From positions 1 through 22,541 of the IMG/VR virus record IMGVR_UViG_3300033463_000022: 22,541 nucleotides of DNA. One strand, 5' to 3'. The DNA is from a virus. Lineage: Duplodnaviria; Heunggongvirae; Uroviricota; Caudoviricetes. A program made the translations under genes and the position numbers. Positions 14,649-22,541 of this stretch are shown here, in pieces (position 1 is the stretch's first letter; every line of letters starts with the position of its first letter). The notes beneath the pieces were generated by a model. That model searched no databases and was not told the DNA's origin. It saw only the letters and a program-made list of their open reading frames with translations.

Positions 14649-15413
14649 ATGCTCTTTTGCGTAAGCTATCAGTCGTCTCATAAGCAAGAGGCAGACGAAA
14701 TCAAGTGTCCTTGGAATCAGCTTGGACTCATATGGGGTATGATAAAAGATAATCCCGAAAAGCGATATATCATTTCGCTAGATGAAGTAACCGATCATGC
14801 GATTAAAGAAATAGATTTAGTGAAGGAAACAGGTTGTGACTACTCGGTTGCGTGCGGCAACCTCTCGTCACTACATACCATGCTCAATAAAGGCTACAAG
14901 GCATACTGGGATGTGCCAATATGCGATTGGGATACCTTTAACTCTCTTAAAGAGCTTAGAGTGACAGATATTTGGGTTGACGGGTCCATATGCTTTGATG
15001 GTACAAACCTATCACTCGTACGAGAAGAGGTAAAACTCCGCGTCTCTCCGTCCTACTCCCCGAATATCATAGTTTTTGGCGCGGCCGCTAACTCTTTCTT
15101 CATTCGTCCAGAAGATACCAAATTTTACGAAGATATATTTACCACCTATGATTTTAACGCTCCTACACAAGATGCCGAAGACGCACTCTTTAACATCTAT
15201 AAGCGCGGCTATTTTGATGCCTATATTGACTCTTTAATTCCAAGCCTTCCGCACCATATTATCAATACGCTCATCGCCGATGAGTTTGCCATATCAAGAC
15301 TTGATTGTCGACAGTTATGCAAGATCCCCAATCGTCATTGCGGATACTGCAAGCATTATTTAGATTTTGTCGCGACTGCTACCGACTACTTTCAGAGTAC
15401 TGAGACTACTTGA
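14649..15413 (+). CDS. Hypothetical protein, 254 aa
   Basis: GGGAGG RBS; long open frame. Confidence 0.75.
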   Translation: MLFCVSYQSSHKQEADEIKCPWNQLGLIWGMIKDNPEKRYIISLDEVTDHAIKEIDLVKETGCDYSVACGNLSSLHTMLNKGYKAYWDVPICDWDTFNSLKELRVTDIWVDGSICFDGTNLSLVREEVKLRVSPSYSPNIIVFGAAANSFFIRPEDTKFYEDIFTTYDFNAPTQDAEDALFNIYKRGYFDAYIDSLIPSLPHHIINTLIADEFAISRLDCRQLCKIPNRHCGYCKHYLDFVATATDYFQSTETT

Positions 15414-15456
15414 AAGTAGTCATTTTTTATGTTATTATATATTTATATAAAGGAGT

Positions 15457-18672: not shown

Positions 18673-18789
18673 TTTTCCCATCGCCTCGTGGGTAAGGCGA
18701 TAAGACATTGCCCTCTGACAGTACCACACCGATTTGGGCATGAATGATTCGGTAACCGCGCCAGTTAAGGTTGAATCTGGCTTTTATTT

Positions 18790-18865
18790 ACCCTAGCAGC
18801 TCAAATGGTTGAGCGCGCGCCTTATAAGCGCGTGAGTGTTGGTTCGAGTCCAACCTAGGGTACCA
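18790..18865 (+). tRNA. trnI: tRNA-Ile(UAU)
   Basis: Acceptor ACCCTAG/CTAGGGT, anticodon loop CT-TAT-AA (18823-25), TTCGAGT T-loop, encoded CCA. Confidence 0.9.
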
Positions 18866-19040
18866 CAAGGAAGCGAGGCGCGTAGCCTCAAGAACGCTCG
18901 CCGCGAAAGGAGCCGTAACGCCGTTGGGAACTTGGGTGTGAATAAAATAAAAATATTTTGCACTTTGGACAAAATTTTTTCATTTGTTATTTATATTCTT
19001 CATATATAATGAAGAAAATTTGAAAGGAGTGCAAATTTAC

Positions 19041-19805
19041 ATGTCTACTTGTGGTATTTATAAATTTGAAAATAAAATAAATCATAATATTTATATTGGT
19101 CAATCTGTTGACATAGAACGTCGATATAAAGACCATCTAAATAGAGCAAAGAATCCTCATAAATCAAATACTGAATATGATTCTGTCCTTCACTAGGCAA
19201 TACGAAAGTACGGTATTGAGAATTTCCTTTTTGAAATAGTAGAGGTTTGTCCTAATAATAAAGAAATTCTTAATAATAAAGAACGTTTTTGGATTGCATT
19301 TTATGATTCTTTTAGCCATGGATATAATGCCACTTCAGGAGGCGAGGCTCAAGAACCCTCCTTAAAAATTGACAAATGCTTGGCAGACCAAATAAAACAT
19401 GATTTGTTATATACTACTGATACATATGATGTGTTACATGAAAAGTATAATATCTCAACTGGTAGAATTTCAGAAATAAATACTGGTAAAATTTGGTATG
19501 ATGAAAAACTTGATTACCCACTCAGAAAAAAGGATAAAATATCTCCATCTAAAATTTGTCCAATCTGCGGTGGAATAAAAGACAAAGACGCTTCTTTATG
19601 TTTATCCTGCTATAGAGCATCGTTAACTAAACCTGTAACTAGAGAAGAGCTAAAAGATCTTATCCGCACTACACCTTTTACGACAATTGCTAAAAAATAT
19701 AATGTAACAGATAACGCTATTCGAAAATGGTGTATAGGATATAAACTCCCATCTAAAAAGAAAGAGATTTCTGCTATTAGCGATAAAGATTGGGAAAAAC
19801 TGTAA
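19041..19805 (+). CDS. Free-standing GIY-YIG homing endonuclease (Seg-like) with in-frame TAG at 19194-19196
   Basis: GIY...YIG, 'LH(TAG)AIRKYGIENF', GYN, C-terminal zinc ribbon and HTH; the two track ORFs (18984 and 19380) are in the same frame and are joined only by this TAG. Confidence 0.85.
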
Positions 19806-19879
19806 GGGTCGCTAACTCAATGGTAGAGTGCTCGGTTGAAGCCCGAGTAATCTTCGTTCAATTCGAAGGTGACCCACCA
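19806..19879 (+). tRNA. trnF: tRNA-Phe(GAA)
   Basis: Stem CTCGG/CCGAG, loop TT-GAA-GC, encoded CCA. Confidence 0.9.
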
Positions 19880-20011
19880 GCCCAAATAGGCTATAAGGGT
19901 TCAGCGAAAAGGTGGATAAGCGCGATAACTATTGCCACCCTAGCGGCCGGAGGGGATAACTGTTGCCTAGCAGGAAGAGCCCGTTCGAAAGTAAAGCTCC
20001 GACAATTATAT

Positions 20012-20719: not shown

Positions 20720-20761
20720 ACCTCATTTGAAAAATTAAAAAATATATTATATAATATATAT

Positions 20762-21282
20762 AGAGATTGAGAGATGGAGCATGGCTCCTCTCTTAGAAAC
20801 TCTTCGTTAAACCACCTACCTGTGAAGCTGGCTGAGCCAGTGGTCGGTAGCGGGTCACAAGTCCCGAGTTTGTGAAGCTGGTGAGGTCGCAAACGTCAAG
20901 TGCGAGTGGCGAAAAGCCCTCCTCGAGGTCGACTGGTGGAGGCAAGGCGGCTAGAGGCCTAGAATCTCTATCGTTCACTGTAAGAACTGAAAACGTACAG
21001 CGTATTCCACATACGAAAGAGCGGAAGGTTTCTTAGATCATCCAGAAATCTAGGCGATCGGTGCGCGTGATAGCGCTGGGTTAAACCCGTCATCCCTGTA
21101 GAAGTACAAAAAAGACGGGCGCGCGTTTGGAGCGTAGTCCATCGAGTGAACCAGCTACCACGGCGTCAGAAGCCAAGCTGGGTGATGTATGGGTTTCATC
21201 ACTAAGGGTAACTTGCCCAAAACCCTTTGTGCTGAATCCGCGTTGTACGCGGGGAGCGCCGCGCGCCTTACAGCGGTATCTT
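20762..21282 (+). ncRNA. Large ornate structured RNA (ROOL/GOLLD-like candidate)
   Basis: About 520 nt GC-rich ORF-free tract after a TTGAAA-17-TATAAT promoter; many hairpins plus long-range GGCGCGCG/CGCGCGCC pairing; lies within a tRNA island. Confidence 0.6.
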
Positions 21283-21286
21283 CCTT

Positions 21287-21361
21287 GGGCGACTAGTACA
21301 TCGGTTAGTACAAACGGCTGTTAACCGTTAGAGCAAGGTTCGATTCCTTGGTTGCCCGCCA
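21287..21361 (+). tRNA. trnN: tRNA-Asn(GTT)
   Basis: Stem AACGG/CCGTT, loop CT-GTT-AA, G discriminator, encoded CCA. Confidence 0.9.
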
Positions 21362-21529
21362 AGGAATAGCAAATTTTCCTATACAACAGATGCGCGGTTG
21401 GCTGACCTTAAGGCTCGATAGAAGTATTGCCAAGTGCGTGCCGCTTACCACTAAAATTACTTCTATTCGGACCGCGCCAAGCGAGGGCGTATCAATGTCG
21501 TTAAACTAATCATAAATGCTCGCTAATAT

Positions 21530-21606
21530 GCGGACGTAGCCCAATGGCAGGAGGCAAATGCCTTAGGAGCATTGCAGTGTGGGTTCGAATCCCTCCGTCC
21601 GTACCA
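21530..21606 (+). tRNA. trnL: tRNA-Leu(TAG anticodon, reads CUA), short variable loop
   Basis: Stem AATGC/GCATT, loop CT-TAG-GA, 5-nt variable region, encoded CCA. Confidence 0.85.
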
Positions 21607-21609
21607 TAT

Positions 21610-21686
21610 GCTCGCTTACTCCAATTGGCAGAGAGGGCAGGTTCAAACCCTGTAAAGTCTGGGTCCGAATCCCAGAGCGAGTACCA
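21610..21686 (+). tRNA. trnL: tRNA-Leu(CAA), short variable loop
   Basis: Stem GCAGG/CCTGT, loop TT-CAA-AC, 5-nt variable region, encoded CCA. Confidence 0.85.
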
Positions 21687-21818
21687 TTGGTGTTTGTCGG
21701 CACCGCAAGTGTGTTACATTTCCGTAGATGCTGCACACAGCATCCCCGAGCGAGAGGATGGATAAAAGGTTCCTAAGGCAGCAAGGAGCTGTAAGTATCT
21801 CGCCGCTGCCAATTATAT

Positions 21819-21895
21819 GGTCATGAGGGAAAACTAGCAGATCCGCCGGCCTGTCACGCCGGAGATAGCGGGGGCAGCACCCGTCTTGATCGCCA
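21819..21895 (+). tRNA. trnD: tRNA-Asp(GTC) with non-canonical T-loop
   Basis: Stem CCGGC/GCCGG, loop CT-GTC-AC, T-loop GGCAGCA, encoded CCA. Confidence 0.8.
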
Positions 21896-22047
21896 GCCGC
21901 GTTTGGTAGTATCGCGGGCGCTGAATAACTGCCACTATGGTTGTCGGCTAAGACGCATTGTGCGCCCCTAAAACCGTCATAGAATGGTAGGACTCTATTA
22001 AATGTGCCTCCTTTGGCAAGATGCTCTGCCGAGAAAATGAGCTACAA

Positions 22048-22146
22048 GTCGATGCTCTTTAAGCGATGGGTGGTTCGAATCCACAGGTGCCCGACGAGGG
22101 CGCCTCCAAACCACGGTACACGGGAATCGCCGCTTGAGTTGTTGGC
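22048..22146 (+). ncRNA. Circularly permuted tRNA mimic, YrlA-type Y RNA candidate
   Basis: T-arm GTGG-TTCGAAT-CCAC, closed acceptor-like hairpin AGGTGCCC/GGGCGCCT, D-like arm, enclosed by GCGAT/ATCGC and an extended outer stem beginning GTCGA. Confidence 0.55.
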
Positions 22147-22387
22147 GCAACAAGAGCAATGGAGTTGAGATTTGGGGAGCGAGTAGCGCCAACTACTCCT
22201 CTTGCGGGACCGGTCGGAAGTGCGGGTGTATGGACTAAAAGCCAGCCCCGACCGGCGCCGCAAGAGAATCCACTTTGATTTTATTAAAAATTTAATTTAT
22301 AATAGTTATAGAAAATGAGAAAGACGCTTGCAGCAACTATTTTTTACATATTTGCTTGGAATGTATGTTTTGTGCGTCTTGGTATTT

Positions 22388-22528: not shown

Positions 22529-22541
22529 GCTCCCGTCTACT
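22529..22541 (+). tRNA. Probable 5' end of a further tRNA, truncated by the window edge
   Basis: TAT-GCTCCCGTCTACT resembles the start of the tRNA-Leu(CAA) gene (TAT-GCTCGCTTACT). Confidence 0.3.

Follow-up and report, generated by a model that had tools for sequence, protein, structure and literature searches.

A twister ribozyme variant heads a putative accessory RNA gene between a promoter and tRNA-Asn in a TAG-recoded phage

What is made from the approximately 520 nt that separate a promoter from tRNA-Asn in the tRNA cluster of a tailed phage? To our knowledge, large structured phage RNAs (e.g., ROOL and GOLLD) are few, and the original prediction described this tract (positions 20762 to 21282) as a single ornate noncoding RNA, possibly of a new class. 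The window analyzed here is the whole stretch of DNA from base 1 to base 22541 of a 147,056-nt virus record (G000). At least 25 tRNA genes are present in the record. TAG is a Gln codon in this phage; the share of the genome in long open reading frames (ORFs) is 43% with code 11 and rises to 75% with code 15. The outer features of the locus are as follows.

20727 to 20755, + strand: sigma-70-type promoter (TTGAAA, 17 nt, TATAAT)
20767 to 20796, + strand: hairpin of the 5' leader (P0-type stem-loop), present in the minimum free energy (MFE) structure of the nascent transcript (leader z score, -3.15)
21287 to 21361, + strand: tRNA-Asn(GUU), which is also the neighbor in the homologous contig L151 described below

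The promoter elements, which had been placed at 20727 and 20750, are present there. They match the consensus at 11 of 12 bases and are one member of a promoter family that recurs across the phage genome (plus strand, 32 copies; minus strand, 3 copies), and we infer that transcription starts near 20761-20762. An identical promoter occupies the equivalent position in two relatives (L151 and L152). The tract is GC-rich, as had been noticed (approximately 52% versus 42% for the genome), and it does end just before tRNA-Asn, the first base of which is 21287. Neither terminator-like sites nor runs of five T were found in 20760 to 21700; because no terminator intervenes, tRNA-Asn is probably cotranscribed with the upstream RNA. 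The description of the tract as ORF free was true in substance, because even with TAG read as Gln it holds chance-sized ORFs only (at most 70 aa on the plus strand under code 15). A hidden TAG-recoded ORF was rejected on this ground and because the longest open frames are of unequal length in the window and L151; no ORF is common to both homologues under code 15.

Several features of the surrounding region were recorded separately. The endonuclease-like gene at 18984 to 19805 of the window is complete under code 15 only, and a tRNA with a CUA anticodon lies at 40226 to 40299 of G000. A FliD-like cap protein (23754 to 24680), a flagellin (38622 to 40007), and a DUF2828/DUF7788 protein (41364 to 42884) are encoded inside or adjoining the tRNA region of this record. 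Within the window, a tRNA-Asp(GUC)-like gene at 21819 to 21895 was missed by both ARAGORN and Rfam, and relatives have tRNA-Asp at the equivalent place in the array. The tRNAs at 21530 to 21606 and 21610 to 21686 have Leu anticodons (UAG and CAA) without the long variable arm that is usual for Leu, and the tRNA called Phe(GAA) at 19806 to 19879 corresponds to tRNA-Lys(UUU) in L151, with identical downstream sequence. Four further noncoding inter-tRNA tracts (18680 to 18790, 19856 to 20011, 21470 to 21525, and 22011 to 22270, the last with a T-arm-like word) are 75 to 89% conserved in L151 and/or L152 and had no Rfam match. These conserved tracts are good RNA family candidates, with more homologues than the main finding.

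Folding energy alone proves nothing at this locus, because coding controls and the minus strand fold comparably or better. Set against shuffled sequences, the plus strand reached a z score of -1.88 (4 of 100 shuffles as good), a value comparable with those of two coding controls (-1.3 and -2.4), while the minus strand reached -3.95. Judged by these figures (a z score of about -1.9, no better than coding sequence, and a better-folding opposite strand), the tract could be decayed coding or neutral spacer DNA with chance helices. We regard this reading as extremely improbable and already largely refuted, given a twister ribozyme core with covariation, double changes in 7 of the 22 pairs of the conserved 5' body (both described below), and the lack of a shared ORF under code 15.

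Direct DNA searches for homologues (BLAST and patterns) found none in GenBank phages, plasmids, or 98 related phage records, and we therefore used the neighboring peptidase gene to reach syntenic contigs. One of these, L151, carries a homologue at 14836 to 15440 (nhmmer E value, 6e-16) that is likewise flanked by this promoter and tRNA-Asn and has 63% identity to the window over 444 aligned bases. In another, L152, the same promoter is followed by approximately 30 nt and then by tRNA-Asn; given this empty site, the element was gained or lost as a unit. The syntenic relatives L153, L440, L441, L446, L447, and L499 lack it as well. A third copy of the body (i.e., the part downstream of the twister variant described below) was not found when all collected loci (approximately 4.7 Mb) were searched with an HMM and with models R1 and R2, or by covariance model R2 in 80 records, a set without a positive control. 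Exact and gapped patterns gave no new homologue among the matches listed in viral contigs, the matches listed from a metagenome scan were the L151 contig, some chance matches, and a repeat unrelated to the element, and the species genomes contained no further homologue. Among the matches listed, then, the element is rare in the collections searched. In L151, the leader could pair with the bases immediately ahead of tRNA-Asn as a 9-bp stem (14870 to 14878 with 15429 to 15437), which has no clear counterpart in the window.

Patchy presence and the empty site in L152, in a tRNA region with many homing-type endonuclease genes, might also point to a mobile or selfish RNA element (an intron remnant or a retrozyme-like unit) inserted upstream of the tRNA. 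We consider such an origin very unlikely. The element occurs as a single copy in the genome, it has no associated ORF, and a second ribozyme was not found at its 3' end. No group I or group II intron model matched either homologue at E values up to 10, and a group I intron was rejected for this reason and because the R/S-like words GACUG and UAGUC, which a conserved P7 would require, are not kept in L151.

The 5' part of the element gave a more specific signal. With cmscan at E values up to 10, the only relevant Rfam match in the tract was a weak one to twister-P1 at 20804 to 20892, with 17.8 bits against a gathering score of 67.2 and hence below the cutoff; L151 had a Twister-P5 match (22.3 bits). 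The canonical twisters of related phages also fall under the 67.2-bit cutoff (40 to 62 bits); 24 related records contain them, most lie in tRNA arrays, and many immediately precede tRNA-Ser. A descriptor search and covariation in L146, L151, L490, and L491, taken together with the Rfam match, delimit the following features.

20803 to 20913, + strand: type-P1 twister ribozyme variant
20803 to 20807 with 20909 to 20913, + strand: stem P1, five pairs
U20808/A20809, + strand: predicted scissile bond (U^AA cut site)
A20809, followed by A20810, + strand: predicted general acid
G20904, followed by A20905, + strand: predicted general base
A20814-C20815 with G20861-U20862, + strand: pseudoknot T1 (AC/GU)
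20856 to 20858 (CAC) with 20906 to 20908 (GUG), + strand: pseudoknot T2, with the A-A pair available
20816 to 20849, 20851 to 20866, and 20868 to 20894, + strand: stems P3, P4, and P5; P2 is weak

The register of the cmscan match, which ends at 20892, was rejected because T2 fails in it, and the register ending at 20913 was chosen because, with the second GAG (20904), both T2 and P1 form in the window as well as in L151. Three blocks that are identical in the window and L151 (CGUUAAACCACC, GGUCACAAGUCC, and GUGCGAGUGGCG) are exactly L1-5', L4, and L1-3' of the twister. The U^AA cut site with A+1 and A+2 is invariant in all aligned copies of the variant, and the general base G and the A after it are the same in L151, L146, L490, and L491. 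T2 reads CAC/GUG in the window and L151, CUC/GAG in L146, and UCC/GGA in L490 and L491, while the P1 stems differ between copies with their pairing kept; because T2 and P1 change while staying paired, the twister fold is supported. The AC/GU form of T1 is invariant within the variant and is also found in the canonical twisters of L479, L480, and L483, others having GC/GC. P4 is CGGG/CCCG in the window versus GCGG/CCGC in L151. Moreover, P1, P3, P4, and P5 all appear in the unconstrained MFE structure of the transcript from 20762 to 20916. P3 and P5 are long insertions, and L151 is without P3. On these observations, the 5' part very probably has a twister fold.

The weak point of this fold is P2, in which ACC stands opposite UGC or GGC with one of three pairs canonical (two of three in L490), compared with approximately four pairs in the canonical stem. 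Because the canonical P2 fails, we file the RNA as a twister variant and not as a canonical member. P2 also competes with T1, the MFE structure pairs CAC with GUG, and the conserved A-C opposition in P2 adjoins the cut site. In L151, the twister fold costs 6 to 7 kcal/mol relative to the MFE structure. The weak P2 with its A-C opposition, the alternative CAC/GUG pairing, and the P0 hairpin of the leader would suit one large RNA in which the 5' domain is twister derived and inactive and the full transcript of approximately 520 nt is the product, as would the complementarity, seen in both homologues, between the catalytic strand GCGAGU and ACUUGC, an invariant word of the body. This reading is the closest to the original prediction, and we rate it as distinctly unlikely: the variant retains its general acid, its general base, the A of L4, and the two pseudoknots, and T2 shows covariation from phage to phage. 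Experimental data from a published survey also bear on it, as approximately 94% of about 2,600 natural twisters tested were cleaved (McKinley et al. 2024, PMC11662667), and twister cleavage tolerates P2 defects and long P3 or P5 stems but not damage to the pseudoknots or catalytic bases (PMC11662667). In the CHiTA data of this survey, cleavage was lower where a P0 hairpin was present (PMC11662667). The twister of the window has intact pseudoknots and catalytic bases and is preceded by a P0 hairpin; judging from its sequence, there is a good chance that the predicted ribozyme self-cleaves.

The variant is not confined to the two carriers of the element. The UAAACCACC twister variant is also present in L146, L490, L491, and L495, which, with L151, makes five other phages. 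These four additional copies have no body, and each precedes a conserved 95-aa gene with no assigned function. They are compact 55-nt forms (L146:15638-15694 and those in L490, L491, and L495; records G025, G076, G099, and G075) located just upstream of the ribosome-binding site of that gene. Upstream of the 95-aa gene of the phage studied here (L008:815-910; approximately 22815 to 22910 of G000), a 7-bp stem (TTCCACT/AGTGGAA) encloses TAAACTACC and further hairpins; by eye, this arrangement may represent another ribozyme-like fold, one that has diverged further. A literature search outside most subscription journals found no published description of a weak-P2 twister variant or of the body RNA.

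Because a twister variant takes up the first 110 nt downstream of the leader, the element is composite and not one 520-nt ornate RNA; the promoter-driven structured noncoding RNA in a phage tRNA cluster is the part of the original prediction that stands. What follows the twister variant is divided as below.

20914 to 21015, + strand: 5' domain of the body, a block with 73% identity to L151 (BLAST E value, 8e-9), with hairpins at 20916 to 20943, 20952 to 20970 (loop CCUAGAA), 20978 to 21000, and 21001 to 21015
21016 to 21180, + strand: middle of the body, supported by a near gap-free alignment (A3), a curated helix table, alifold, and selection-corrected tests, with hairpins at 21034 to 21052, 21058 to 21079, 21098 to 21107 (GAAG tetraloop), 21128 to 21141, and 21152 to 21180
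21182 to 21225, + strand: 3' pseudoknot of the body, in which the loop (GGGUUU, 21191 to 21196) of a hairpin at 21182 to 21202 pairs with AAACCC (21220 to 21225; 6 bp)
21206 to 21218, + strand: hairpin inserted in the pseudoknot, with the invariant loop AACUU
21233 to 21286, + strand: variable 3' tail, 54 nt versus approximately 127 nt in L151, not conserved

The 5' third is the best-supported part of the body (20914 to approximately 21232). Its linkers GGCAAGGCG and GUUCAC are invariant, and its three hairpins (22 pairs) have 93% of cells paired and seven double changes, compared with 28 to 46% paired in slid-partner controls, the structure having been drawn from the same two sequences that were used to score the pairing. 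After the 5' third, the alignment of the body is nearly gap free. The middle is weaker than the 5' domain; an example of its helices is GUA-GAAG-UAC in the window versus GGA-GAAG-UCC in L151, where the stem has changed and the loop is kept. Two longer-range pairings are possible in both homologues, namely a long helix of GUUCAC (20973 to 20978) with GUGAAC (21146 to 21151) and a contact of GGCAAG (20941 to 20946) with the CUUGC loop (21212 to 21216), both sides of which are invariant. Neither covaries between the two homologues, and no long-range body helix with convincing covariation was found in this pair of sequences.

The 3' pseudoknot was found by eye in two sequences only. L151 has AGGUAG/CUACCU at the matching places, with three of the six pairs changed on both sides, and the inserted hairpin is GGGU-AACUU-GCCC in the window versus GGAGU-AACUU-GCUCC in L151. 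A pistol or hepatitis delta virus (HDV) fold for this pseudoknot was rejected, since the conserved catalytic bases were not seen by eye. All seven helices of the original prediction consist of words that are where they had been reported and that can pair in the window. In L151, TAGAG/CTCTA (20952 to 20970) keeps four of five pairs, and CGTAT/ATACG and GTGATG/CATCAC have counterparts at shifted positions. CTGGC/GCCAG lies inside the P3 insertion specific to the window and is missing from L151 together with P3. The remaining three are not conserved helices: AAGGGT/ACCCTT, which the GGGUUU/AAACCC pseudoknot replaces, retains three of six pairs in L151, CCGCG/CGCGG retains three of five and lies in the unconserved tail, and the long-range pairing of GGCGCGCG with CGCGCGCC retains two of eight.

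Regarding the body as a whole, the consensus fold had a z score of -3.4, which was reached by 0 of 200 column shuffles. Tests that reran the search on randomized alignments were mixed, though mostly positive. In a strict selection-corrected test, the homologues shared 7 helices with 32 pairs and 13 double changes (null means, 3, 13, and 4.9), and 1 to 3 of 300 nulls were as good. With a looser register, 11 to 27 of 300 nulls were as good, and double changes at a low score threshold were not significant. Pairs predicted from L151 alone transferred to the window with an excess of double changes (P = 0.006 to 0.06), and most transfer tests to L151 of pairs predicted from the window alone were not significant. 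Overall, the support for the body comes from two sequences only and ranges from P values of approximately 0.003 to 0.09, not significant under some settings. We conclude that the tract very likely encodes a real conserved structured RNA; that the body folds as a single unit and has a role of its own is moderately probable.

The main rival holds that only the twister is functional, trimming the 5' end of a tRNA precursor, and that the body amounts to small hairpin modules, strung together but independent of one another, or to a structured spacer. The variant does stand alone before the 95-aa gene in four other phage records, most of the supported helices are local, the MFE z scores of the body are unremarkable, and the tail is unconserved. 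However, twister and body occur together in both carriers and are jointly absent from the empty site, the order and spacing of approximately 12 helices are kept over 320 nt, and the invariant single-stranded linkers suggest tertiary contacts. With these points weighed, we see the twister-only reading as unlikely. The explanation that we favor, at somewhat better than even odds, is an accessory noncoding RNA gene that consists of a twister variant and an uncatalogued structured body of approximately 320 nt and is present or absent between the promoter and tRNA-Asn.

Under this favored explanation, the host RNA polymerase would start near 20762, and the twister would fold during synthesis and cut between U20808 and A20809, dropping the 47-nt leader and leaving a 5'-OH end, as in general twister chemistry (PMC6765202). 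The leader that would be cut off as this piece of approximately 47 nt is not conserved in the sequence of its hairpin, and that of L151 differs and is longer. RNase P, the established enzyme of tRNA 5' processing (PMC10879173), would then cut at the 5' end of tRNA-Asn and set the 3' end of the RNA. An RNA of approximately 478 nt (20809 to 21286) would be released as a discrete folded molecule. It may be a dispensable stable tRNA-island RNA, as ROOL and GOLLD are thought to be; we tentatively suggest, by analogy and as a guess, a role as a decoy or scaffold in a phage program of tRNA supply and RNA repair. A bolder and improbable proposal is that the body founds a new class of large phage RNA whose ends both mature without a dedicated protein, the 5' end through the twister and the 3' end through RNase P. 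Under this proposal, pairing of the invariant CUUGC loop with the twister catalytic strand or with GGCAAG would let folding control the release of both the large RNA and the tRNAs downstream of it in a phage with a recoded stop codon.

Since the ends of the RNA are predicted, it can be made and tested directly. The natural twister variant with a degenerate P2, missed by Rfam and present in at least six phage records, offers a cheap test of the limits of the twister consensus, and the body is a further candidate RNA family for a phage group in which ROOL is also present.

How does the element compare with known RNAs? No Rfam family matched the tract above its cutoff, in keeping with the suggestion of an uncatalogued RNA, and none of ROOL, GOLLD, OLE, RNase P, and the introns named beforehand as candidates matched at the locus. 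More broadly, cmscan at E values up to 10 found no match to OLE, RNase P, transfer-messenger RNA (tmRNA), group I/II introns, raiA, or other Rfam 15 families in either homologue, the output being weak twister matches and noise only; the tmRNA model matched in several related records (positive control). A tmRNA was rejected because its model matched neither homologue. RNase P was rejected because the GAGAAGUCC look-alike, which is in L151, is a hairpin with a covarying stem.

The element resembles ROOL (RF03087; Kretsch et al., 10.1101/2024.12.08.627333) in its size of 500 to 600 nt, its phage tRNA-island setting, and its patchy distribution; unlike ROOL, it is headed by a ribozyme. The ROOL model had no match at E values up to 10 in the genome itself or in L151, while it scored 207 to 350 bits in 17 of 58 related phage records (positive control), and an HMM of 10 ROOL copies run against both homologues, and the reverse, gave no match and no motif in common. 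ROOL identity was rejected on these three grounds (model score, HMM similarity, and shared motif). Neither ROOL nor tmRNA was detected in G000, which is approximately 85% complete. The likeness to GOLLD (RF02032) lies in a large structured RNA beside phage tRNAs with a pseudoknotted 3' region; GOLLD is usually 800 nt in size, and the element is shorter. The GOLLD model, which covers the conserved 3' domain, matched neither homologue in a set without a working positive control.

With theta (HDV-like) ribozymes (PMC10879173), the element shares a self-cleaving-type RNA inside the tRNA transcript of a TAG-to-Gln phage. For the theta ribozymes of recoded gut phages, the proposed targets are tRNA 3' trailers (PMC10879173), whereas the twister differs in fold and, located 480 nt 5' of the tRNA, would remove a 5' leader. 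A theta/HDV-like ribozyme, a nested double pseudoknot directly 3' of a tRNA, was rejected because the element is 5' of tRNA-Asn and had no HDV-type Rfam match. These comparisons suggest that the processing of tRNA-island transcripts in recoded phages is aided by twisters as well as by theta ribozymes. A further close known system is the type-P1 twister (RF03160; PMC11662667), with which the 5' part shares the order P1-L1-P2-P3-P4-P5, the U^AA cut site, an L4 with CAAG, the GA general-base strand, pseudoknots T1 and T2, and the phage setting, and from which it differs in its degenerate P2 and long P3 and P5. The type-P1 twister fold is already known; what is new is the twister variant and, after it, a structured RNA outside the catalogued families, of which two sequences are known.
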